From NCBI GenBank assembly GCA_036397395.1, contig DASWIZ010000007.1, positions 1 to 50,702 of the forward strand: DNA of 50,702 nt, in the 5' to 3' direction. Each line of letters starts with the position of its first letter. Position 1 is the first letter of the stretch. The notes beneath the pieces are model-generated. The model saw nothing but the letters and a program-made list of their open reading frames with translations. It ran no database searches and was not told the origin of the DNA. Made by a program: the position numbers and the translations under genes. Source of the DNA: Minisyncoccota bacterium. GTDB taxonomy: Bacteria > Patescibacteriota > Minisyncoccia > Minisyncoccales > UBA10102. Below are positions 3,115-48,020 of the stretch, piece by piece.

Positions 3115-3121
3115 TCAAACC

Positions 3122-3146
3122 AAAACCCGCCGTTAAGGCGGGTTTT
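3122..3146. terminator. bidirectional terminator between tRNA-Pro and hup
   Basis: AAAACCCGCC / GGCGGGTTTT stem with GTTAA loop; an A-run lies 5' and a T-run 3', so it can work in both orientations. Confidence 0.7.
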
Positions 3147-3165
3147 GGTTTCAAAGTTTCCTTTG

Positions 3166-5958: not shown

Positions 5959-5983
5959 TTGTGTGAAACCTGGTTTCACACAA
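5959..5983 (-). other. 11-bp hairpin 17 nt upstream of the sipW start
   Basis: TGTGTGAAAC / GTTTCACACA with a 3-nt loop. Confidence 0.5.
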
Positions 5984-8167: not shown

Positions 8168-8190
8168 GTAGTAAGGCTAAGCCTTACTAC
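8168..8190. repeat. REP1 palindrome, copy A (GTAGTAAGGCT-a-AGCCTTACTAC)
   Basis: Perfect 11+1+11 palindrome. The same core occurs at 43089-43109 and 43847-43867, and degenerately at 42724-42744. Confidence 0.85.
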
Positions 8191-12672: not shown

Positions 12673-12885
12673 CTACCTTCTTGTTGCACGAAAGTTTGGA
12701 TCTGGACTCGGGTTTGCAAATTCACCTTGCGCCCCGCATTTCCTCTTGCAAGTTCCGACCGCAAGCGGGCCTGGCCCGCTTGTAATCGTCCAATTTGCAA
12801 GATTTTCGTGATCTTTTTTCGTGCAAACCTCTGGGTTGCCGCCCCGCACATGCAACAAAGTGAACTGACCCTCTTTTTCGGCCAT
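12673..12885 (-). CDS. small hypothetical protein (70 aa)
   Basis: The ATG is preceded by AAAGGAGGG (4-nt spacer) and by a TTGACT-type -35 about 60 nt upstream. No family recognised. It contains an in-frame palindrome (ACAAGCGGGCC-ag-GCCCGCTTG). Confidence 0.35.
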   Translation of the reverse strand: MAEKEGQFTLLHVRGGNPEVCTKKDHENLANWTITSGPGPLAVGTCKRKCGAQGEFANPSPDPNFRATRR

Positions 12886-19116: not shown

Positions 19117-19158
19117 CCTTCGCATAAGCCTTTGACTATTCAAAGGCTTATGCGAAGG
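19117..19158 (-). other. perfect 18-bp hairpin overlapping the Shine-Dalgarno of 18706..19110
   Basis: CCTTCGCATAAGCCTTTG / CAAAGGCTTATGCGAAGG with a 6-nt loop. The AAGG of the SD is inside the stem. Confidence 0.7.
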
Positions 19159-31656: not shown

Positions 31657-32553
31657 TCAACCCCCCTTGTCCACCCCTGGGGTGGACAAGGGTTCTTTAG
31701 TCAGTTCGGCTGCCGCAATAAATGCGATACCCCAAACAATAGCCGCAAGGCTCCAAACAAGACCAATGCTCGATTCAGCGTTTGGCAATACTATCGAAGC
31801 TGTGCCGAGAAAAATCGGAAGAAATCCAGCAACCCACGCCGCCAGCCGCCAGCCGCGAGGCCTAAAACTCGCCAAGAGACCCACTAGGAGGATAATAAAA
31901 CTGAAAGCGGCCATGTTGCGATAGTGGCCTTGGGCGGCATGCTCTTGATCTTCATGTTCGTCGTTAGCGCCCATATCTTGCGATAGTTCCTGATTGTCTG
32001 CTGGATTACCACCGTGCACGGCAGGTCCTTGGTGGTCAATGTCAATTCCAATGGTAATGCCCTCGCCCCCGGTCTGCAGGTTAATATTTGTGGCTGCGAA
32101 CATAAACAAAGGCGCAACTGCGATAACAACCAACGTGAGCAATACTTTATTTACTTTCGCAGTACGAATCCAGTTAAACAAGCCAAGCCCCGCCGGATGC
32201 AGAATTGTTGCGATAAGCGTCAATCCGCCAAAAATAATAAAGAGCGGCTGCGGAACCCAGTTATTTGTGAGAGCGGCGGTCGCAATCATTGCAACCCAAA
32301 CAACTAGCGCTATCAGCTGACCTGCAAAATTTTCCTTGGGCTTGAAAAGCTGGCTGGCAAGTCCCGCTGCGGCCGTCGCAATAACGAGCGCAAACACAAG
32401 TTCGTGAATAAGATTGTGAGTATCTCCTGTGTAGATAAAATCGAAATGTCCCATAGCAGACATCCAGTTGCCGGGCAAAAACATTAGCACATTGATTACC
32501 CCAAGAAATCCTAAATATGCCAGCACAACAAGCGAGAACGCGAAATGTTTCAT
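31657..32553 (-). CDS. polytopic membrane protein with His/Asp/Glu-rich loop
   Basis: About 8 TM helices and the loop DIDHQGPAVHGGNPADNQELSQDMGANDEHEDQEHAAQGHY. The last 10 codons (PLSTPGVDKG) are encoded by REP2 copy 1. Confidence 0.6.
   Translation of the reverse strand: MKHFAFSLVVLAYLGFLGVINVLMFLPGNWMSAMGHFDFIYTGDTHNLIHELVFALVIATAAAGLASQLFKPKENFAGQLIALVVWVAMIATAALTNNWVPQPLFIIFGGLTLIATILHPAGLGLFNWIRTAKVNKVLLTLVVIAVAPLFMFAATNINLQTGGEGITIGIDIDHQGPAVHGGNPADNQELSQDMGANDEHEDQEHAAQGHYRNMAAFSFIILLVGLLASFRPRGWRLAAWVAGFLPIFLGTASIVLPNAESSIGLVWSLAAIVWGIAFIAAAELTKEPLSTPGVDKGG
31664..31692. repeat. REP2 palindrome, copy 1 (CCCTTGTCCACCCC-t-GGGGTGGACAAGGG)
   Basis: Perfect 14+1+14 palindrome. The same core is at 32878-32908 and 33549-33594. 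Confidence 0.85.
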
Positions 32554-32871: not shown

Positions 32872-32908
32872 GTCCACCCCCTTGTCCACCCCTGGGGTGG
32901 ACAAGGGG
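32872..32908. repeat. REP2 palindrome, copy 2, with a duplicated left half-site
   Basis: Perfect 15+1+15 palindrome at 32878-32908, preceded by the extra half-site GTCCACCCCC (32872-32881). Confidence 0.85.
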
Positions 32909-32933: not shown

Positions 32934-33555
32934 ATGCAACGAAAAGACGTGCTCACTACCGACAACATCTACCACATAATGAGCAAAAGTATTGCCGGCT
33001 ATTCTATTTTCAACTCGGATATGGAATATAAACGAATGCTGCAAATACTTCGCTTCTTTTCCTATGCAGGGAACCCTTTGAAATTCTCTCGGTTTATGAC
33101 ATCCCCTCTTGTCCAAAAGCAAGGATTTGAACAAGCAGTAAGGGAGTCAACGGAAGAAAGCGACAAAATTGAAACAACTGCGCGACAACGGCATCTCTCT
33201 TTATGCCAGCAACTTCCTCAACACCTACGCTCGATATTTTAATACGAAACATAACCGCAAAGGACATCTATGGGCAGACCGCTTTAAGAATGTTCCCATA
33301 GAATCAGATGAACAGCTTTTGCACCTTAGCAGGTACATTCATCTTAATCCCGTAAGTGCTGGTTTGGTAAACGATGCTGGCAAATGGAAATATTCATCGT
33401 ACGCTGAATACATAACGCCCGAGCTAATCGCGTACCCTCTCTGCGACTTTCGCGATTTGATTAAAGAATCCCCTAAAAACTACCGTGTCTTTGTTAGTGA
33501 TCGTGCGGAGTACCAACGAAAGCTTGCCAAAATCAAGAAACTCGCAATAGTGTAA
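32934..33555 (+). pseudogene. Y1/HUH (IS200/RAYT-like) transposase pseudogene, frameshifted and lacking the HUH motif
   Basis: The N-terminal ORF (NIYHIMSKSIAGYSIF) and the C-terminal ORF (LKQLRDNGISLYASNFLNTYARYFN ... GHLWADRFK ... SRYIHLNPVSAGLV ... WKYSSY) are in different frames. The expected segment around the MPNHxHL box, present in the paralog 43114..43833, is missing. Confidence 0.65.
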
Positions 33556-33594
33556 ACCCCTGTCCACCCCAGGGGTGGACACGGGGTTTACACT
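33549..33594. repeat. REP2 palindrome, copy 3 (extended, inverted orientation)
   Basis: AGTGTAAACCCCTGTCCACCCC-a-GGGGTGGACA(c)GGGGTTTACACT: 22 bp with one bulged C. It overlaps the stop codons of both convergent genes. Confidence 0.8.
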
Positions 33595-36772: not shown

Positions 36773-36810
36773 CAGCCAATTTGCCTCCCGGAAATAGTAT
36801 GGTAACTGCG

Positions 36811-36844
36811 GTACTTGGGAACCGCGATCGCGGTTCCCAAGTAC
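36811..36844. repeat. perfect 34-nt palindrome with central GCGATCGC
   Basis: GTACTTGGGAACCGCGA/TCGCGGTTCCCAAGTAC. Confidence 0.8.
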
Positions 36845-36874
36845 CTGCTGTTTAACGTCGCACTTTAAACACTC

Positions 36875-39921: not shown

Positions 39922-41844
39922 TTACGATATTACCTTCTGCAAGGTTTCCTGGTCGAACGACAAATAAAACGCGCTGTTGATAAGGCCGATATGCGTGTAG
40001 GCCTGGGGGAAATTGCCGAGAAATTCCTTGGTTTTGGGGTCGATTTCTTCTGAATACAGACCGAGGTGGTTGCGGTAACTCAAAAGCTTTTCAAAAAGTT
40101 CTTGCGCTTTTTCTTTCTCTCCCGCAAACGTCAGGGCATCCACCATCCAGAAAGAACAAAGCAAAAAAGCGCCTTCGCTCCCCGGCATCCCATCGTCTGG
40201 TGAATTCGTGTACCTCCGGTACAGCCCCGGGGCTAGGGAAAGCTCGCTCTCAATGGCTTTGATAGTCGAAAGCATTTTGGGATCATCACCTTTGATAAAC
40301 CCAAACACGGGCATTAAAAGGGCTGCCGCATCAAAACTTTCTGACCCAAAACTTTGTACAAATGACTGTCGTTTCTCTGACCACCCCTGTTCCATAATCT
40401 GTTTGCGAATCTCGTCTCTTTCTTTCTTCCACAACTCTGTTTCCGCGTCGTACCCGTAGGCTTCTACCAGTTTTAAGGCGCGGTCTAACGCCACCCAGCA
40501 CATAAGTTTAGAGTGCGTAAAATGTCGTTTGCCTCCGCGCACCTCCCATAGTCCTTTATCGGGCTCCCGCCAAATGTTTACCACATGGTTTGTCAGCGCC
40601 CGCATTGTAACCCAAAGCTGCGGGCTTAACGCATAGTTGTTGCGCATGCGGTGCAAACGCCACATCATATTCAAAATTCCCCCGTAAATGTCCCACTGGC
40701 GCTGAATGTAAGCTCCGTTTCCGATACGCACGGGTTTTGATCCCATATATCCGTCTAAATGCTCCAGTGTTTCTTCCACAAGGTTTTTTTGTCCGCGCAG
40801 GCCGTACATAATCTGTAATGTTTCCGGGCCGTCTTCCACGCTGCCGCATTCATGAATTAACCACCGTACATATTCATCTGCTTCTTTTATATACCCTAAC
40901 CAAAACAAAGCCTGCAGGGTAAAGGCGGAATCTCGAATCCAGGAAAACCGATAATCCCAGTTTCTGCCGCTTCCGATTTCTTCCGGCAAAGAAGTGGTGG
41001 CGGCAGCGGCTATGGAGCCCGGCGGCTCCAAAAATAAAATTTTCAAAACCAAAGAAGAGCGCATTACCGCCTCGTGGTAAGGATACTCAATTAAGCACGT
41101 TTCCAAGTCGCACCGGTGCACCCACTCTTGCCAAAACTGCTTGGTTTCCTGTATGTCGTGTTCGTAATAAGCATCTGTTTTGTCCGGAACTTCCGTGGTG
41201 TTATACAGAAACGTAAGATAGTGTTTTTCGCCTTCTTTCATGTCCAAATAAGCCACGGCCCTGTCTTGCTCTTCAATGTGCGCATCTACTTTTTCAATGG
41301 TATAGTTTGCTTTTGAAACAAGAATTCCCTTTTTATTGCCGTTTTCCGCGGCCACCCCGCCGGGCACCACAGAAAGTGTTGTTTTTCCCTTTGCATAGTT
41401 AAACCGAGGCTGAAAAAATACTTTTACGCGGCATTTCCCTTTTATACAGGTTATTCTGCGTTGAATCTCCAAAACTTCCTCCTCTTCTGAAGGAGGCTGT
41501 TTTATTCCATTTTCAATGTGAAAAGACCCGAGCGACCCATTTCCGTTTCCAAAGTGGTTCCGTATGGGCAAACAGTCTGCCAGCTCAAGTACGCCTTGTT
41601 TGGTGGTAAAACGCGTAACAAGAATGTTTGTTTCCGGCATATATTCCTGTTCAGAAGTAAATTCTTCGGTGGGCTGCACAGCCCAAAAACCTCCTTTTGT
41701 ATAGTCTAAAATTGCGGCAAAAACAGACGGGGAATCCAAAAAGGGCGCTGGCGCCCAGTCGATTGTCCCGTCTTTTGCCACTAAAGCTGCGGACCTGCGG
41801 TTTCCTATAATGGCGTAATCTTGAATAGGTTTATACTTTGGCAT
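39922..41844 (-). CDS. glycoside hydrolase family 15 (glucoamylase/glucodextranase-like)
   Basis: YAIIGNRRSAALV, NWDYRFSWIRDSAFT, and GLYSEEIDP near the C-terminus. Confidence 0.85.
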   Translation of the reverse strand: MPKYKPIQDYAIIGNRRSAALVAKDGTIDWAPAPFLDSPSVFAAILDYTKGGFWAVQPTEEFTSEQEYMPETNILVTRFTTKQGVLELADCLPIRNHFGNGNGSLGSFHIENGIKQPPSEEEEVLEIQRRITCIKGKCRVKVFFQPRFNYAKGKTTLSVVPGGVAAENGNKKGILVSKANYTIEKVDAHIEEQDRAVAYLDMKEGEKHYLTFLYNTTEVPDKTDAYYEHDIQETKQFWQEWVHRCDLETCLIEYPYHEAVMRSSLVLKILFLEPPGSIAAAATTSLPEEIGSGRNWDYRFSWIRDSAFTLQALFWLGYIKEADEYVRWLIHECGSVEDGPETLQIMYGLRGQKNLVEETLEHLDGYMGSKPVRIGNGAYIQRQWDIYGGILNMMWRLHRMRNNYALSPQLWVTMRALTNHVVNIWREPDKGLWEVRGGKRHFTHSKLMCWVALDRALKLVEAYGYDAETELWKKERDEIRKQIMEQGWSEKRQSFVQSFGSESFDAAALLMPVFGFIKGDDPKMLSTIKAIESELSLAPGLYRRYTNSPDDGMPGSEGAFLLCSFWMVDALTFAGEKEKAQELFEKLLSYRNHLGLYSEEIDPKTKEFLGNFPQAYTHIGLINSAFYLSFDQETLQKVIS

Positions 41845-42716
41845 TATTTCAATAAACTATTCCAATCTTCCGCGAATGTATCTACCCCTTTATCCGTCAA
41901 ATCATGGGAAATGTCAAACGCCCGCCAATCTTGCTCCAGGCTTATTTCTTTGTACGGAATTTCACGCAGGCCTTCTGGTTTGTATTGAAAATCACCTGCC
42001 GGCAGGCCAAGGCCGCCCTCTCCCCATTCTTTGAGAACTTTCCATGGAGCAGTTACGATATCAGAACCAAGCTGAATGGCCGCGAGAAGATGATCAAGAC
42101 TTCGCACGGAGGCTACAAGCACTTCCACATGCCCGTCACCCTGCTTGTACATTTGTATAATATTCTTTATAAGCTGCATGCCGTTTTCTCCGCGGTCGTC
42201 CAAACGGCCGATAAACGGCGAAAGAAACGCATCTCCCTTTTTTGCCCCGCGGGTGGCCGCGTACACGGCCGCGGCCTGCTGCTGGAAAAACACCAGGGTC
42301 ATGTTTACCCGCATGCCCTCTGCAATACTTAAACGCGCCGCCTCCAGCCCTGTTACAGTGGTGGGGTATTTAATGTGCGCGCCTGCCCCGAGCGAAGTCG
42401 AGGGGTTCGAAATCCAGGAAAACATTCTCTTTCCCTGCTTGAGCATTTCTTCGGCGCTTGTGTTTTTGTCTGCGTATACCTCAATCGACACAGAACCTTC
42501 GGGTATCAACCCCGAAACTTCCTGCACCACTTCTTTATAAAATCCGAGGAGCTCCTCTTTCGTGAACTTTTTCCGCGCAGTCTCCGGATTTTTCGAAATG
42601 AGCGACGGATTCGTCGTCTGCCCGTCCAAAAACCCGAGCAATTTAATTGCCTTTTTTGTCTCGTCGGGATCCCCGCTGTCCAAAAATATTTTCGTTTTCA
42701 AATTCTTCGGCCTCAT
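41844..42716 (-). CDS. tal: transaldolase-family protein with in-frame GC-rich insert
   Basis: IFLDSGDPDE and DGQTTNPSLI; the Schiff-base Lys context is HIKYPTT. The segment NPSTSLGAGA is encoded by the element at 42381-42405. Confidence 0.8.
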   Translation of the reverse strand: MRPKNLKTKIFLDSGDPDETKKAIKLLGFLDGQTTNPSLISKNPETARKKFTKEELLGFYKEVVQEVSGLIPEGSVSIEVYADKNTSAEEMLKQGKRMFSWISNPSTSLGAGAHIKYPTTVTGLEAARLSIAEGMRVNMTLVFFQQQAAAVYAATRGAKKGDAFLSPFIGRLDDRGENGMQLIKNIIQMYKQGDGHVEVLVASVRSLDHLLAAIQLGSDIVTAPWKVLKEWGEGGLGLPAGDFQYKPEGLREIPYKEISLEQDWRAFDISHDLTDKGVDTFAEDWNSLLK

Positions 42717-42723
42717 ATATTTA

Positions 42724-42744
42724 TACTAAGGCTAAGCCTTATAC
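42724..42744. repeat. REP1 palindrome, degenerate copy B
   Basis: The core TAAGGCT-a-AGCCTTA is intact; the arms are mutated (TACTAAGGCTAAGCCTTATAC). Confidence 0.55.
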
Positions 42745-42748
42745 GACT

Positions 42749-43072
42749 TTATGCTGTTACTTTCTTGCGACGAAAAAATTTTCGAAAGAGAAATTCTAAA
42801 ATCGCACCGAAAACAACAAAAGATAACAATGTCAGTGTTAAGAGAAGGAACCAAGGAAGAAACGGTAAAACACCAGATACTATTATCAACGGAAAGTATA
42901 CTGGTATGCCAAGCAGGGCAAACGTCCATCCCCAGCCTTCAGTGCAAATTCCTACCTGAAAAATATCACATATATCTCTTAGGTAAGCATAAATAAACAA
43001 TATAGAGCCAGAATAGAGCAGTCCGATGGTCGCCCCTATTTTATACTTCCACAAAAACCGTAAAATTCGCAT
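42749..43072 (-). CDS. small membrane protein (107 aa)
   Basis: Three hydrophobic helices and a basic C-terminus. It is flanked by REP1 copies B and C. Confidence 0.5.
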   Translation of the reverse strand: MRILRFLWKYKIGATIGLLYSGSILFIYAYLRDICDIFQVGICTEGWGWTFALLGIPVYFPLIIVSGVLPFLPWFLLLTLTLLSFVVFGAILEFLFRKFFRRKKVTA

Positions 43073-43080
43073 ATTATTCG

Positions 43081-43110
43081 TAGTAAGGTAGTAAGGCTTA
43101 GCCTTACTAT
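43081..43110. repeat. REP1 palindrome, copy C, with a duplicated left half-site (inverted orientation)
   Basis: TAGTAAGG + TAGTAAGGCT-t-AGCCTTACTA. The central base t is complementary to that of copies A and D. It ends 4 nt before the RAYT stop codon. Confidence 0.85.
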
Positions 43111-43113
43111 AGC

Positions 43114-43833
43114 TTACTCAAGCATTAAATGCTCAATGGTGTTTATTTTTCGGGTTCGTAAAGAATTCTCGACAAATTCTTCGTATTTTGCCCGGTTCGG
43201 AAAAAGACTATGCGCGACACCCTTATCGATAATGGGTGATTCTCTTATTCCTAAGTACTCTTGTTGGGTGCCCCACGGATATGCTTCTGCAAATTGCATT
43301 ATACCTTGTATATTCTTCACGCCTTCCTCTTTTAAATTTGGTTCGATAAATTCTGCTGGATTTATCACATTAACATAAACAAGAAGATTTTGCAGGTATT
43401 CATCTGTATCTACCTGCACTACCTTGAACGGGCCTTGAAACAAGCTGCCTACTCGTTCGTACTTTTTATTAAAGTACATCGTAAAGCCCGTACCAAGCTT
43501 GTGCATAAACTTTGTAATGCCGCCTTCTACGAGCTCTTCAAGAATAAGATGATAATGGTTCGGCATCAAACAATCTGCCATAATGCGCACAAGAGAAGTT
43601 TCTTCTTTACTATTTTTCTCTAAAAACTCTTTAAGGATTCTAAAGTTCATTTTCCCGCGGTGTTCATGCTCCAACTTCCAAAGAAGGTTAAACGGACTCT
43701 TTTCTCTGTTAAACAAAAGTAAAGCCTGAAGAAATCGCCACCGGTCCGCATCGCCAAGAAAAATGTCTCGTTTTTCAACGCCTCGGTTATAGACGTGGTA
43801 GATGTAATTAGGGGCGAATTGAACCTTTCTCAT
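43114..43833 (-). CDS. Y1/HUH transposase, REP-associated tyrosine transposase (RAYT)-like
   Basis: YIYHVYNRGVEKRDIF, LMPNHYHLIL (HUH), GSLFQGPFK, and LLVYVNVINP (Tyr helix). 239 aa; it appears intact. Confidence 0.8.
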   Translation of the reverse strand: MRKVQFAPNYIYHVYNRGVEKRDIFLGDADRWRFLQALLLFNREKSPFNLLWKLEHEHRGKMNFRILKEFLEKNSKEETSLVRIMADCLMPNHYHLILEELVEGGITKFMHKLGTGFTMYFNKKYERVGSLFQGPFKVVQVDTDEYLQNLLVYVNVINPAEFIEPNLKEEGVKNIQGIMQFAEAYPWGTQQEYLGIRESPIIDKGVAHSLFPNRAKYEEFVENSLRTRKINTIEHLMLE

Positions 43834-43845
43834 CTCCTTGGTGTA

Positions 43846-43868
43846 TAGTAAGGCTAAGCCTTACTACG
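43846..43868. repeat. REP1 palindrome, copy D
   Basis: TAGTAAGGCT-a-AGCCTTACTA (43847-43867). It overlaps the pgl stop codon and lies 13 nt upstream of the RAYT ATG. Confidence 0.85.
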
Positions 43869-44580
43869 TAATGTCGGTAAACACGGCGACGTTTTTCATT
43901 TGGTGGATAACCCGGGCCGGGGTTTTGGCAAGGTCGCCCCTCTTTGCCAGCAGGCTGCGCAGGGCGCGGCGTTTATTGGAACCGGTTGCGTACACCACCG
44001 CGCAATCCACCTGATTTCGCAAAAAAGGAAGGGTAACGGTAATGCGCTTGGGGTACTCGCTTTTTTCTTTGGTGGCGTTATACCCCACCACCCACCTGCT
44101 GTCTTTTTCGAAAAACTGGGTAAACTTTTTCGGGTTTTCTGCGTACGGCATAATGCCGGCCGTGTGGCCGTCTTCTCCGATGCCCTGGGTAATAATAATC
44201 TTGCCCTTCGGATATTTCTTTTTCCAGCGCCTTAATCCGCGCTCTAACTTTTGGGCCAACCCATACAGGCTTATTTTTCGGTGTATTCTGGTATCTATGT
44301 AATCTATGCCTTTGCGTTCCGCTTTTTTGTAAAAATCGGTTTCCGCTACCTGCGAAAAATTGTTTACCGCGGGATCGCGCGAAAACCGTTCGTCCAGCGC
44401 CGCAATGGTCGTTCTTTTCCCAACGTACTTCATTTCCACGCCCGCCAGCAATTCTAAAGCGGAACCCCCGGATAGCATAAACAGTACTGGCTTTCTGCGC
44501 GCTTGGCGCAAACATTCGTTCAGCCTGTCTATTGCCTTTCTCATTGCCGTCTCCCTCGTCTTACTCCTGGAAATTTTCAT
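43864..44580 (-). CDS. pgl: 6-phosphogluconolactonase
   Basis: FMLSGGSALELL, ALDERF and GIGEDGHTAGIMP. Confidence 0.75.
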   Translation of the reverse strand: MKISRSKTRETAMRKAIDRLNECLRQARRKPVLFMLSGGSALELLAGVEMKYVGKRTTIAALDERFSRDPAVNNFSQVAETDFYKKAERKGIDYIDTRIHRKISLYGLAQKLERGLRRWKKKYPKGKIIITQGIGEDGHTAGIMPYAENPKKFTQFFEKDSRWVVGYNATKEKSEYPKRITVTLPFLRNQVDCAVVYATGSNKRRALRSLLAKRGDLAKTPARVIHQMKNVAVFTDIT

Positions 44581-44584
44581 GCAA

Positions 44585-46429
44585 CTACCGCAAAGCTTCT
44601 TTTATTTTTTTCATGATGGCGTCTTTGGAAATTTCTTCGTAATCGAGCAGTTCTTCGGATGTTCCGGATTTGGGCGTTTTTCTGACTGCGAGAACACGCA
44701 CCGGCGTGCCAAAGCCGGAAAGCGCGACGGCCACGGCTTCTCCCATTCCCCCTTCCGGGTAGTGGTCTTCCACCACAAAGATTGCTTCTGTTTCCCTCGC
44801 CGCTTTCTCGAGCGTGCGCTGGTCGAGCGGTTTTACCGAATAGAGATCAATCACGCGAACCGCAATCCCTTCTTTCTGCAAATCTGCGTACGCCCCAAGC
44901 GCTTCATGGAGCGTAATGCCGGCGGCTACAAGCGTTACTGCATCGTTCCCGCTCGCTTTCAGCGTTTTGCTTCCGCCTATGGGAAAACGCTCTGCGACAT
45001 CATACAAAATAGGGGTGTCCTGTCTTGTGGTACGGATATAGACATTTCCTTCATGGCGCACCGCTTCTTCTACAAGCCGCTCTGTCGCAACTTCGTCTGC
45101 CGGGTACAAAACCAGGCTATCGTGAAGAGTTCGAAAAAGCGCGATATCCTCCAAGCCCATTTGCGAGGCTCCGTCTTCGCCGATAGAAACTCCCGCGTGC
45201 GAACCTACGAACTTGATGTTCGCATCGGCGTACTGGGACATGCGAATTTGGTCGGCCGCTCTCGTGAAAAACGCCGCGAACGTGGAAACAAACGGAATTT
45301 TCCCGCGGCGCGACAGACCGATAGCGGCTCCCACCATGTTTTGCTCAGCAATGTACATTTCAAAAAACCGCTCGGGATACTTTGCCTTGAAAGTTTCCGC
45401 AAATGTGGAATTGCTTACTTCCGCGTCGAGCACTACCATGTTCGGAAATTCCGGGAATAGCCGCGTAATCGCGTTTCCGTACGCTTTGCGCGTTGCCAAA
45501 GGCTTTGCCGAATAGACAAGCGCGTCCGCAGGCCTTGCTTCCGCTATATGGGGATAATGGTCTTCGGGCTTGGCGACTTGCCCGCGCGCAAACCGATCCA
45601 CTTGGCCAAGTTCTGCGAGCGCTTTTTCATATTCTTCTCTGTTCAGGGCTTTTCCGTGCCAGCCGCCTTGGTCTTCCAGAAACGAAACTCCCTTGCCCTT
45701 GAACGTCTTTGCAATAACCATGGTAGGCCTCTCTCCCCCTCTCGTTGCCCCTGTATAGGCATCCAGAACCTCCTCAACATTATGGCCGTCGACAAGAATC
45801 GTGTGCCAGCCAAACGCCGCAATGCGCTTTTCGTATTCTTGCGCCTTATGGCCGTACATAGTTTCTCCGCGCTGGCCCAAACGGTTTACGTCGAGAATGC
45901 CCAGAAGATTGTCGAGCTTGTAATGGGCAGCCAGCTGCATGGCTTCCCATTGAGAGCCTTCTGCCATTTCGCTGTCGCCCAGCAGCACATACGTTCTATA
46001 AGGAAGTTTATCCACGTACTTTGCATTCAGGGCCATTCCCACTCCAATCGAAAGCCCCTGACCCAAAGAGCCGGTGCCAGCTTCCGTATAAGGAAACGCC
46101 ATGGTTGGATGCCCTTCCAAACGGCTCTGGAATTTCCGGTAGGTCCGCAACTCATCCTCGTCTATGGCGCCCGCGGCCGCGTATAGCGCGTAAAACAGGG
46201 GCGAAGCGTGGCCTTTGGAGAAAATGAGGCGGTCGTTGTTGGGGTGTTCAGGATCTTCAATATTCGCGCGAAACACGCCGCCGAACATAAGCGCGCACAT
46301 CAGCTCTACCGCCGACAGCGACGAAGTAGGATGCCCCGAACCAGCTTCCGTCGTCATCACCAAAATATAATACCGCATCAACTTCGCCAATTCCTCAAGT
46401 TTTTTTACATCCTGTGCCATACTAAACAC
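44585..46429 (-). CDS. tkt: transketolase
   Basis: GSGHPTSSLS, GHASPLFYA, LGQGLSIGVGMA, GDSEMAEGSQWEA and EDGASQMGLEDIA. Confidence 0.9.
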   Translation of the reverse strand: MFSMAQDVKKLEELAKLMRYYILVMTTEAGSGHPTSSLSAVELMCALMFGGVFRANIEDPEHPNNDRLIFSKGHASPLFYALYAAAGAIDEDELRTYRKFQSRLEGHPTMAFPYTEAGTGSLGQGLSIGVGMALNAKYVDKLPYRTYVLLGDSEMAEGSQWEAMQLAAHYKLDNLLGILDVNRLGQRGETMYGHKAQEYEKRIAAFGWHTILVDGHNVEEVLDAYTGATRGGERPTMVIAKTFKGKGVSFLEDQGGWHGKALNREEYEKALAELGQVDRFARGQVAKPEDHYPHIAEARPADALVYSAKPLATRKAYGNAITRLFPEFPNMVVLDAEVSNSTFAETFKAKYPERFFEMYIAEQNMVGAAIGLSRRGKIPFVSTFAAFFTRAADQIRMSQYADANIKFVGSHAGVSIGEDGASQMGLEDIALFRTLHDSLVLYPADEVATERLVEEAVRHEGNVYIRTTRQDTPILYDVAERFPIGGSKTLKASGNDAVTLVAAGITLHEALGAYADLQKEGIAVRVIDLYSVKPLDQRTLEKAARETEAIFVVEDHYPEGGMGEAVAVALSGFGTPVRVLAVRKTPKSGTSEELLDYEEISKDAIMKKIKEALR

Positions 46430-46481
46430 GTAGAAAGTTATGAACCTAAAAAGTTTACAAAAGAATTAAGTATATTACATA

Positions 46482-46501
46482 ATTAGTACGATCGTACTAA
46501 T
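46482..46501. promoter_or_regulatory. perfect 20-nt palindrome ATTAGTACGATCGTACTAAT (candidate operator) upstream of tkt
   Basis: It overlaps the -35 position of a TATACT box (minus strand) about 48 nt upstream of the tkt ATG. A near-identical copy is at 48059-48078. Confidence 0.5.
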
Positions 46502-46514
46502 CGTGTTATACCCT

Positions 46515-48020
46515 TCATTGAGTTATCGTAAAATTAACTCCGATGCTTGTTTTTTGCCACGCCGCCACATAGATTTTGTACGCTCCTGAAGTAAGCGTAA
46601 GCCACTCCTTGCAAGGAAGTCCGCTATACGAATTATCACTCTGGCAAAGAGGAGACCCCAAGATAACTTTGATAAACTTATAAGTTGATCCTTCTTTTCC
46701 GTAAAGAATGCCGCTTACGCCTTGGCCGTTTTCAATCCATGCGTTCAGATCCCCCTCAAATCCTACAAAATTGCATCCCCTGATTTCAACTTCTGTGCCT
46801 ATTGGACCAGAATCTGGTGAAATTGAAGTAATGGTGGGTCTCCCACTTCTGCAACTTGCCAAAATAGTGGCTTCTTGTGATTCAAAAAACCGAAGCGTGG
46901 AAAGAAAAGTCTTGAACAATGCTTGGTTATATGGATCATAATAACCACCCAGCATTGCAGAATCACCGATTCTGACACTTAAACTACTCGAACCATCGTC
47001 AAATAACGCTTCAACCCAAGCACCTGTTACGTCCCAATCAATCACGCCAGACATACCGTCTACGGTAAGTCGTTCGCATCGTGACGTTTCGTTTAAAGCG
47101 ATGGGACGAATACTCGTCAGATAATCCTCACAAAAACTTAGGTCTCTCTCGTTTGAATCAAACCAATTTATTTGAAGGCGATAAAAACCTTTACCGCCAG
47201 TCACCGCTGAAGGAGAGCCTCCAAATGTCCAATCGAGAGGATGTTTGTACTCAAAGCCATACATTTCAGAACGATACGTTTGCCAATTGGAGGTATCAAT
47301 TTGTGGTTCCCAAAACCGAAACGTGGAGAGGATTTGGTCAAAAGTATATTGATATCTGTTTACTGCTTCTTGCGAACCACCATTGAAGACAAACTGGGTA
47401 GAATAACCGTCTCTATTTATTAGTACGAAATCGCCCGTAACTGGGCCGAAATCAGGTTCTTGAATATATTTATCTTGATACTGATGTTGAGCCTTAACCT
47501 TGTATCGAACAGCAGGATATCCTCCAACTGTAAAATCTTGGATTTTAGTATAAATAATCCGATAAATAGTGGGTTGGTTGAGCGGTAGAATGAGCTGGTC
47601 GCCCACCTTTATCCCCTGCAATGCACTAAACAACTGTTCGCCGCCGGGGGGACTATCTATTCGTAACTCAACGTTCTCGACATCTTTTCCATTAAACCCC
47701 GAAGCTTTATTGGAAAACGCATATCGTCCTGCGTATCCTTCATCTGTGGCATTAAACCAATCCGATGGATACCTCATCTCAAACCCAAACTCGTCGTTGC
47801 GGTAGGTTTGCCAATCGCTTGTATCTATAACCTCGACTTGCGACGGCGGGGCTGGCGCTGGCGGCGGAACAGCGTGCTCTGTTTCTTCGGCAACGGGCTG
47901 TTCAGCCGGAGCCGGCGCTGTTCCGCGCAAAAGGAAAACCACGGCAACCACAAGGACAATCGCGGCAACACCCGCCAGCACCACAAACATTTTTATCTCC
48001 CCTTGAAATTCTTTTATCAT
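46515..48020 (-). CDS. secreted protein with two W-x-T-Y-R-x-x-x-x-G-F-E domains and a C-terminal IPT/TIG-like domain
   Basis: TM/signal anchor. DWQTYRNDEFGFEMRYPSDW and NWQTYRSEMYGFEYKHPLDW, as in 784..1437. PTITSISPDSGPIGTEVEIRGCNF is IPT/TIG-like. Confidence 0.65.
   Translation of the reverse strand: MIKEFQGEIKMFVVLAGVAAIVLVVAVVFLLRGTAPAPAEQPVAEETEHAVPPPAPAPPSQVEVIDTSDWQTYRNDEFGFEMRYPSDWFNATDEGYAGRYAFSNKASGFNGKDVENVELRIDSPPGGEQLFSALQGIKVGDQLILPLNQPTIYRIIYTKIQDFTVGGYPAVRYKVKAQHQYQDKYIQEPDFGPVTGDFVLINRDGYSTQFVFNGGSQEAVNRYQYTFDQILSTFRFWEPQIDTSNWQTYRSEMYGFEYKHPLDWTFGGSPSAVTGGKGFYRLQINWFDSNERDLSFCEDYLTSIRPIALNETSRCERLTVDGMSGVIDWDVTGAWVEALFDDGSSSLSVRIGDSAMLGGYYDPYNQALFKTFLSTLRFFESQEATILASCRSGRPTITSISPDSGPIGTEVEIRGCNFVGFEGDLNAWIENGQGVSGILYGKEGSTYKFIKVILGSPLCQSDNSYSGLPCKEWLTLTSGAYKIYVAAWQKTSIGVNFTITQ

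Follow-up and report, generated by a model that had tools for sequence, protein, structure and literature searches.

The 50,702-nt stretch of contig DASWIZ010000007.1 analyzed here (Minisyncoccota bacterium, assembly GCA_036397395.1), referred to below as the window, is essentially the entire 51,773-bp metagenome contig and has a G+C content of 0.48. It carries a single intact gene of a Y1/HUH nuclease family, which is bracketed by two copies of a short perfect palindrome also present at two further sites (Table 1). The Y1 gene lies within a close-packed pentose-phosphate gene string, tkt-pgl-Y1-memb-tal-GH15 (window 39922-46429; also L001:805-3068), with intergenic gaps of 4-41 nt and with the genes for G6PD and 6PGD immediately upstream. 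Judged by sequence, this string is apparently one co-transcribed unit. A terminator/promoter scan of 41500-46600 revealed no promoter- or terminator-like signals above chance, and tnpB was not found among the neighbouring genes of Y1.

The encoded protein contains the motif YHVYNRG near its N-terminus, the HUH block MPNHYHLIL and the tyrosine block LLVYVNVINP. These are the YHV, HUH and Tyr-helix blocks from which an earlier sequence-only reading of this DNA had recognized a RAYT-like gene (repetitive extragenic palindromic (REP)-associated tyrosine transposase), and the match to the Pfam family Y1_Tnp (PF01797; 27.7 bits, gathering cut-off 23) confirmed that the protein belongs to the Y1 HUH superfamily. 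H93 and H95 of the HUH motif (NHYH) and the putative catalytic Tyr153, located within YVNVINP, are invariant in an alignment of 24 diverse homologues with a mean column identity of 66%. For the AlphaFold2 (AF2) model of the protein (pLDDT 87.9, pTM 0.88), the top PDB fold match was 4ER8, the E. coli TnpA(REP) with a REP hairpin (E 1.3e-4, probability 1.0, TM 0.62 on target), and the next matches were the TnpA proteins of IS608, ISDra2 and IS200 (2A6O, 2XQC and 2F4F among the matches). A PDB sequence search with the family profile returned nothing relevant.

The cognate palindrome has the form TAGTAAGGCT-N-AGCCTTACTA, with W as the central base. Its perfect 21-mer, TAGTAAGGCTWAGCCTTACTA, occurs three times in the window, and the 15-nt core, TAAGGCTNAGCCTTA, is found once more at 42727-42741, giving four matches against 0.13 expected; a pattern search permitting up to 3 mismatches found no match to the 21-mer in any of 100 shuffled sequences. 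One copy lies 4 nt past the Y1 stop codon and has a duplicated half-site beside it, as the sequence-only reading had described; the other precedes the ATG by 12 nt, not by the 13 nt given there. The two transposase-free copies that it had listed, one perfect (8168-8190) and one degenerate (near 42724-42744), were likewise recovered.

On the plus strand the two bracketing copies differ in their central base (43099, T; 43856, A), which had been read as a sign that they are inverted relative to each other. They form a perfect 24-nt terminal inverted repeat (TIR), GTAGTAAGGCTTAGCCTTACTATA (43088-43111 on the plus strand; 43844-43867 on the minus strand), and the score of the flanks was 5/10 for inverted and 0/10 for direct alignment. 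Because this repeat includes four asymmetric, dyad-breaking positions, the bracketing copies in the window are truly inverted.

Folded as single-stranded DNA (ssDNA), the perfect copies close a loop of 3 nt with a stem of 9-10 bp, at -7.3 to -9.1 kcal/mol and a z of about -4 in all three. Each of the four copies in the window occupies a short gap that separates minus-strand genes and lies 10-27 nt upstream of a minus-strand start codon. The whole window contained no Rfam match at the gathering threshold. Two simple roles for the palindromes were considered and rejected, namely (i) terminators, since they are without a T tail (41500-46600 scan), and (ii) a Shine-Dalgarno function of the apex AAGG/GAGG, whose distance to the ATG varies from 0 to 68 nt.

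Table 1. The Y1 gene, its palindromes and associated features of the window
Feature	Position	Strand	Remarks
Intact Y1/HUH (IS200-superfamily) nuclease gene	43114..43833	-	239 aa; ORF list, Pfam, alignment, AF2 model
Upstream bracketing palindrome	43844..43867		dyad 43846-43866; overlaps pgl stop codon 43864-43866; hairpin -7.3/-7.4 kcal/mol, z about -4.1
Downstream bracketing palindrome	43088..43111		dyad 43089-43109; inverted partner in the 24-nt repeat
Half-site, TAGTAAGG	43081..43088		repeats, in direct orientation, the outermost 8 nt of the neighbouring arm; read from the sequence
Third, degenerate copy	42727..42741		15-nt core TAAGGCTAAGCCTTA perfect, outer arms decayed; 10 nt upstream of tal ATG; weak hairpin, -3.8 kcal/mol
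Solo perfect copy without a nearby Y1 gene	8168..8190		23-nt dyad GTAGTAAGGCTAAGCCTTACTAC (21-mer 8169-8189); upstream gap of a secreted Peptidase_M73-like gene; hairpin -9.1 kcal/mol, z -4.2
Small membrane-protein ORF	42749..43072	-	107 aa; between the second and third palindromes; no Pfam match
Y1-like pseudogene	32934..33555	+	bracketed by the last two copies of TGTCCACCCC-N-GGGGTGGACA

The Y1 protein belongs to a large family. Detectable homologues number 2607 in a collection of 5.8 billion proteins, and the best 120 of these are nearly all 238-240 aa long and 54-87% identical, their named sources being Patescibacteria, Paceibacterota, Wildermuthbacteria and Nealsonbacteria. An exhaustive profile search of 1.84 billion 50%-identity representatives yielded 705 clusters at E<=1e-30, rising to 8992 at E<=1e-10, and a scan of one genome per GTDB species detected at least 591 family loci, whose titles were overwhelmingly those of candidate phyla radiation (CPR) lineages. 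The CPR-like host proposed from the sequence agrees with these searches: all source-named homologues come from Patescibacteria, Paceibacterota or other named CPR lineages.

The pairing of gene and palindrome was examined in the 90 nt up- and downstream of the homologue at 79 genome loci plus the window, 75 of which were assessable. Odd palindromes at both ends that agree in their inner arm (no more than 1 mismatch in 7 nt) were present at 53 of the 75 loci, compared with one of 594 control ORFs of at least 150 aa from the same loci (Fisher p about 1e-59). The bracketing palindromes typically lie no more than 30 nt from the ATG and 25 nt from the stop codon, and they often overlap one of these codons. 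Most of the non-scoring loci were seen by eye to carry 3-nt-loop or doublet palindromes.

The palindromes vary by genome (e.g. TACCGAAGTC-N-GACTTCGGTA, GTGCTTAACT-N-AGTTAAGCAC and TATGGAGGTT-N-AACCTCCATA), and the distance between their arms is correlated with the distance between the proteins (Mantel r=0.33; 0 of 5000 permutations as high). Six apical positions follow the family consensus G-A-R-G-Y-Y, while the outer stem is lineage-specific. Some metagenome-assembled genomes (MAGs) contain 2-3 family members, and these within-genome paralogues, about 40% identical to the window protein used as query, have palindromes of their own: three different ones in MAG JAHCSD01 (L030, L037, L051) and two in L076. 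A more distant paralogue, 31% identical and with the canonical motif YIHLNP, is also bracketed (L127:5894-6700; contig Ga0210043_1000094, G+C 0.38). Its palindrome is of the window type, GTAAGGCT-N-A[GA]CCTTAC, and two more exact solo copies are present on its 97-kb contig (L106, L144). Since such a remote protein shares this palindrome, palindrome type is not strictly tied to overall protein similarity.

The inverted arrangement seen in the window was rejected as a rule for the family: the central base is inverted at 31 loci and direct at 22 (p=0.27), and the flanks beyond the dyad at the homologue loci gave no orientation signal, matching at chance level both ways. The argument that the sequence-only reading had built on inversion thus holds for this locus and fails for the family.

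Half-site copies of an arm were found in 23 of 156 homologue flanks (15%), while random windows, or the opposite arm, gave about 3%; the half-sites sometimes stand two or three in a row, and occur in the flanks of L009, L010, L014, L016, L043, L059, L076 and L085. They may resemble iterons next to the hairpin, or a slippage footprint. Sense-strand transition mismatches are distributed unequally, with 14 A.C and 5 G.T in the upstream palindromes and 15 G.T and 9 A.C in the downstream ones. This asymmetry (p=0.03; 0.06 without a duplicate locus) is suggestive only of two hairpins that function on opposite strands.

The gene order pgl-Y1-tal is retained in three further lineages. The identities to the window are 85% for Y1, 67% for pgl and 71% for tal in L005-L008, 81%, 66% and 56% in L009, and 67%, 61% and 66% in L010. 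In the comparison with L005, the nonsynonymous divergence (dN) is 0.08 for Y1, 0.25 for pgl and 0.21 for tal, and the proportion of synonymous differences (pS, 0.68-0.87) is near saturation in all three genes; dN/dS of Y1, measured against this 85% orthologue, is about 0.045. According to the sequence-only reading, the unit splits pgl from tal. The comparison of synteny that it had proposed speaks against a recent insertion, because the relatives (L005, L009, L010) keep Y1 in the slot and the order is conserved at saturated synonymous divergence. Such strong purifying selection in genomes of about 1 Mb suggests a benefit to the host.

The palindromes share this history. Both flanking palindromes of L005 keep an identical 17-nt core, GTAAGGCT-N-AGCCTTAC, despite the synonymous saturation, and both copies are altered together in L009 (GTAAGGTT...) and in L010 (TGTGCTAGGCT...). 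Because the core is identical in L005 and the two copies change jointly in L009 and L010, the palindromes must be constrained or homogenized, evolving in concert with the gene. No family match was found in 50,697 phage records, and the 72,556 plasmids searched, in which CPR plasmids are hardly represented, gave ten weak matches (<35% identity). The recurrence of the gene-plus-palindrome unit across CPR relatives with lineage-specific palindromes argues for an old vertical system and not a jumping insertion sequence (IS).

Gene content next to Y1 differs among the relatives, and the differences coincide with palindromes. Both the window and the locus of an 81% orthologue (L161, 4596-4950) have the 107-aa membrane gene with palindromes at its borders; in L009 (downstream of 10714) it has lost its 5' part, with the break exactly at the palindrome, and in L005 it is absent and a single palindrome (L005:7580-7602) abuts tal. 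These palindrome-bounded differences are cassette-like gains and losses and, together with the half-sites, they are compatible with continuing DNA transactions at the palindromes.

The sequence-only reading had expected the palindrome to recur elsewhere, and it does so beyond the solo copies of the window: a metagenome scan for the exact 19-mer AGTAAGGCTNAGCCTTACT gave 82 stretches, corresponding to 54 distinct sites, mostly without a nearby Y1 gene. Many of the solo-site contigs (G+C 0.44-0.50) come from the same groundwater and sediment metagenomes as the 81-85% orthologues. The solo sites are largely intergenic. The open stretch covering them has a median of 61 codons, compared with 238 at random positions, and 21% of them fall within an open stretch of at least 150 codons, compared with 70% of random positions. 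In 788 kb of homologue loci we found 20 distant copies (>120 nt from the gene), where by our own estimate about 0.01 are expected. The density of solo copies is therefore far above chance, yet far below that of classical REPs.

All copies in the window are singlets, the nearest neighbours being 347 nt apart, and no REPIN doublets were found there. Palindrome doublets do occur in the homologue loci L035, L036, L019, L063 and L081. At L141:491-528 (G+C 0.39 contig), two 19-mers stand head to tail with central bases T then A, as a REPIN-like tandem doublet. A composite repeat, CCACGTTTCGGTTTGTGG, that accompanies several solo copies was considered as a mobile unit and rejected, since it represents the C-terminal coding sequence ...LSTFRFVE* of paralogous genes. 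In genes of this kind (L089, L115, L138, L116, L135) the TAA stop codon is supplied by the palindrome (GAG TAA GGCT), and the LSTFRFVE motif occurs twice inside window gene 46515..48020 (46883-46900, 47309-47326).

The window also contains a second unit. Another palindrome family, TGTCCACCCC-N-GGGGTGGACA, is present at 31668-31688, 32883-32903 and 33561-33581, with none expected by chance, and its last two copies bracket the Y1-like pseudogene. The latter is a paralogue with 25% identity to the main gene (hhalign against the family, probability 97.7%, E 1.4e-12), frameshifted and without the HUH segment, which retains NIYHIMSKS and LSRYIHLNPV. In the 50-kb window, an intact Y1/palindrome pair thus stands alongside a decaying one. 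Searched for palindromes with stems of at least 8, the window gave 46 hits (nested ones included), compared with 6.2 in shuffled sequences. Other examples are the odd dyads TTGTGTGAAACC-T-GGTTTCACACAA and CAAGCGGGCC-T-GGCCCGCTTG (site list: 5959-5983, 12762-12782), a 19-bp stem at 19117-19158, a perfect 36-nt dyad at 36810-36845 and a 15-bp stem at 3117-3151.

The Y1 gene, whose product looks catalytically intact, and its palindrome are inherited together and evolve together, and additional intergenic copies occur now and then. We consider it probable that they constitute a system of the REPtron/TIRtron kind, in which a Y1 HUH endonuclease, domesticated, present in single copy and inherited vertically, recognizes a short palindrome. 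The family-wide bracketing, the co-variation, the paralogue-specific palindromes, the intergenic solo copies and the fold all support the proposal of the sequence-only reading that this is a REP/RAYT-like system and not a self-contained IS200/IS605 element.

On the model of E. coli TnpA(REP) and of the TnpA proteins of IS608 and ISDra2, the Y1 protein would bind the palindrome as ssDNA folded into a hairpin, with a stem of 9-10 bp and a loop of 3 nt. It would probably read the conserved apex, A-R-G-Y-Y-N-R-R-C-Y-T, with the lineage-specific outer stem providing the fit. A metal bound by the HUH motif, together with Tyr153, could then cut and rejoin ssDNA at or beside the hairpin. Through such cut-and-rejoin events the palindrome might now and then, at a low rate, be seeded at further intergenic sites and differences among its copies be evened out, while the protein would no longer mobilize its own gene.

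Several observations weigh against this interpretation. The match of the Y1 protein to NCBIfam NF047646 (REP_Tyr_transpos) reaches 24.1 bits, far below the cut-off of 80; all 24 aligned homologues match that family weakly (best E 3.5e-7), and hhalign against E. coli RayT aligns the HUH strip only (probability 1.6%). The Y-motif of the family, Y[VI]NV[IL]NP (Y-x4-NP), is one residue longer than Y-x3-NP, the signature of class-2 TnpA-Y1 proteins (Table 1, PMC6006769). A GT[AG]G foot is present at 8 of 156 family feet (5%), compared with 3% at random. The solo copies have a density of about 1 per 40 kb, with one distant copy in the 50-kb window, and most copies lie <400 nt from the gene, hence dissemination is weak or ancient. 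Lastly, perfect dyads with a 1-nt centre would equally suit the binding of duplex DNA by a dimer.

GTAG does stand on the outer side of the three perfect copies of the window, and it occurs at 13 of 168 feet among solo copies of the same palindrome; on the foot counts, the canonical GTAG/GTGG REP foot was rejected as a feature of the family. The REPtron-like arrangement is retained, with palindromes that are low-copy and not canonical GTAG REPs.

A broader reading, which we regard as speculative and on balance unlikely, is that Y1 and its palindromes are no selfish remnant that the cell tolerates but a host-level system, kept by many CPR lineages, for ssDNA (or RNA) processing, in which the palindromes punctuate gene boundaries within operons and the nuclease installs, homogenizes and recombines them. 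If this were true, host-level processing would generate cassette-like gains and losses such as that of the palindrome-bounded membrane gene, and it would explain why a "transposase" is conserved beyond pentose-phosphate enzymes in genomes of about 1 Mb.

Less probable still is that the palindromes are duplex operators and the Y1-derived protein is mainly a DNA-binding regulator without transposition-like chemistry, which would control its own gene and also tal, the small membrane protein and the secreted Peptidase_M73-like gene. The position of all four window copies shortly upstream of minus-strand start codons fits this explanation, as do the perfection of the dyads, their single central base and their low copy number; moreover, the related subclass 2.1 proteins have helix-turn-helix (HTH) tails (PMC6006769). 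However, the HUH histidines and Tyr153 are invariant, which argues for continued selection on catalysis, and no HTH is detectable in the C-terminal 82 aa, where residues 158-239 gave no Pfam match at E<=10. Many copies in the family lie downstream of genes or over stop codons and not in promoter regions, the promoter-like signal in 41500-46600 is not above chance, and the modelled fold matches hairpin-binding enzymes.

It is distinctly improbable that the palindromes are generic RNA elements, i.e. mRNA-stabilizing or -processing hairpins that punctuate operons and are unrelated to the Y1 protein. The copies do lie within the apparent single tkt-pgl-Y1-memb-tal-GH15 transcription unit, REPs elsewhere in bacteria have RNA roles (PMC3733652), and the weak G.T versus A.C strand asymmetry described above is in keeping with this reading. 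Such elements, however, would leave unexplained both the Y1-specific bracketing and the co-variation of paralogue-specific palindromes with the protein, and the palindromes themselves lack a T-tail, are not among the terminator-like sites and match no Rfam family.

That the unit is an ordinary autonomous IS200/IS605-type IS, inserted between pgl and tal and having like hairpins at its ends by chance, is largely refuted and barely credible: the Y1_Tnp domain, the hairpins at both ends and the 2-3 family members in some MAGs would agree with it, but four lineages with saturated synonymous divergence have Y1 in this very slot, conservation of Y1 exceeds that of the adjacent housekeeping genes, the paralogues of one genome are far from being near-identical copies and have different palindromes, the 239-aa protein has no Y-x3-Q motif and no adjoining tnpB, and phage matches are absent and plasmid matches almost so. 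Nor does the protein fall within multi-copy IS200/IS605 TnpA clades with distinct ends, the placement that would have contradicted the sequence-only reading.

Recognition of the palindrome by a domesticated Y1 endonuclease thus remains the explanation that we favour. A REPtron/TIRtron-like system thereby reaches a new phylum (Patescibacteria/CPR), as a variant form; neither a literature search nor the sample of Quentin 2018 nor Di Nocera 2013 yielded a link between RAYT or REP systems and Patescibacteria. Non-IS members of the TnpA-Y1 family are found preferentially in large genomes (Quentin 2018, PMC6006769), and the REPtron logic of a gene with its cognate palindrome is kept here, contrary to that trend, in extremely reduced CPR genomes. 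Among cases of transposase co-option, the domesticated Y1 transposases (RAYTs, TIRYTs) are an unsolved one, and purifying selection on Y1 stronger than that on neighbouring housekeeping genes argues for a host function. Since its palindrome is short and perfect, the copies are few and the operon is compact, the locus offers a minimal system in which that function may be sought. Because the apex of the palindrome is conserved and its outer stem varies, the family also provides a natural data set for the protein-hairpin recognition code.

In comparison with known systems, the CPR pairs resemble REPtrons (RAYT/TnpA(REP) with REP or REPIN sequences, as in E. coli and Pseudomonas) in the Y1 HUH core, in the best fold match and in having a gene flanked by its own palindromic repeat, with a separate repeat family for each paralogue and additional copies in intergenic positions. 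As has been described for RAYTs, which are single-copy and vertically inherited and occupy the same extragenic space across relatives (bioRxiv 10.1101/2021.07.10.451892), the Y1 gene is single-copy, inherited vertically and located in the same extragenic slot in related genomes. Unlike REPtron proteins, the CPR family is very remote in sequence, its proteins are longer (239 aa versus 165 aa) and, in the model, have two helical additions, an insert of 50 aa after strand 1 and a tail of 80 aa. The repeats differ as well: they are perfect odd dyads without bulges and without a GT[AG]G foot, often lie over start or stop codons, number few and not hundreds per genome, form no REPIN doublets in the window and reside in a CPR host with a tiny genome.

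IS200/IS605 elements have the same catalytic fold, and their transposases (IS608, ISDra2, IS200 TnpA) recognize subterminal hairpins as ssDNA. These elements are multi-copy and near-identical, encode a TnpA of about 150 aa with a Y-x3-Q motif, often carry tnpB and show a patchy horizontal spread, none of which was seen here; the window has one intact copy, a 239-aa protein with an NP-type Y-motif, no tnpB and conserved synteny. Genes of TnpA-Y1 subclass 2.6 and class 3 have "atypical secondary structures" on their flanks (Quentin 2018, PMC6006769), and the likeness lies in flanking non-GTAG structures that are also found elsewhere in the genome. By their description they are set apart by the motifs Y-x4-Q (class 3) and YIH[QN]NP (subclass 2.6), by a length of about 178 aa and by their phyla (Bacteroidetes, Planctomycetes and Acidobacteria, as opposed to CPR for the family studied here).

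The TIRtron with its TIRYT protein (Di Nocera 2013, PMC3733652) corresponds to TnpA-Y1 subclass 2.1, which is Group 1 of Bertels (Quentin 2018, PMC6006769). Proteins of this subclass have a median length of 238 aa, the HUH motif NH[YF]H and an FQ motif (PMC6006769 Table 1), and the 239-aa Y1 protein, with PNHYH and LFQG, resembles them. The TIRs of TIRtrons may self-complement and may overlap gene ends, their families are moderately abundant, and the GGGGWSAS motif is common in them and not obligatory (PMC3733652); the window gene is likewise flanked by a perfect 24-nt TIR, but this contains no GGGGWSAS. A bona fide TIRYT from the Sporomusa plasmid pSPTER (L172), with GGGGTCAG-containing TIRs, aligns over 95% of the query at 23% identity. 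This protein and a relative from Collinsella (L171), both non-CPR relatives from the plasmid search, have tails that match Bac_DnaA_C or HTH. Unlike TIRYTs, the CPR protein has no detectable HTH tail, its Y-motif is not Y[IV]HLNP, and each end of the unit is a whole palindrome and not one half of a TIR pair; moreover, subclass 2.1 genes reportedly have no REP-like sequences nearby (PMC6006769), whereas the CPR gene is flanked by palindromes. Judged from these sequence features, the nearest described kind appears to be the TIRYT/subclass 2.1 type as much as the classical RAYT/REPtron.

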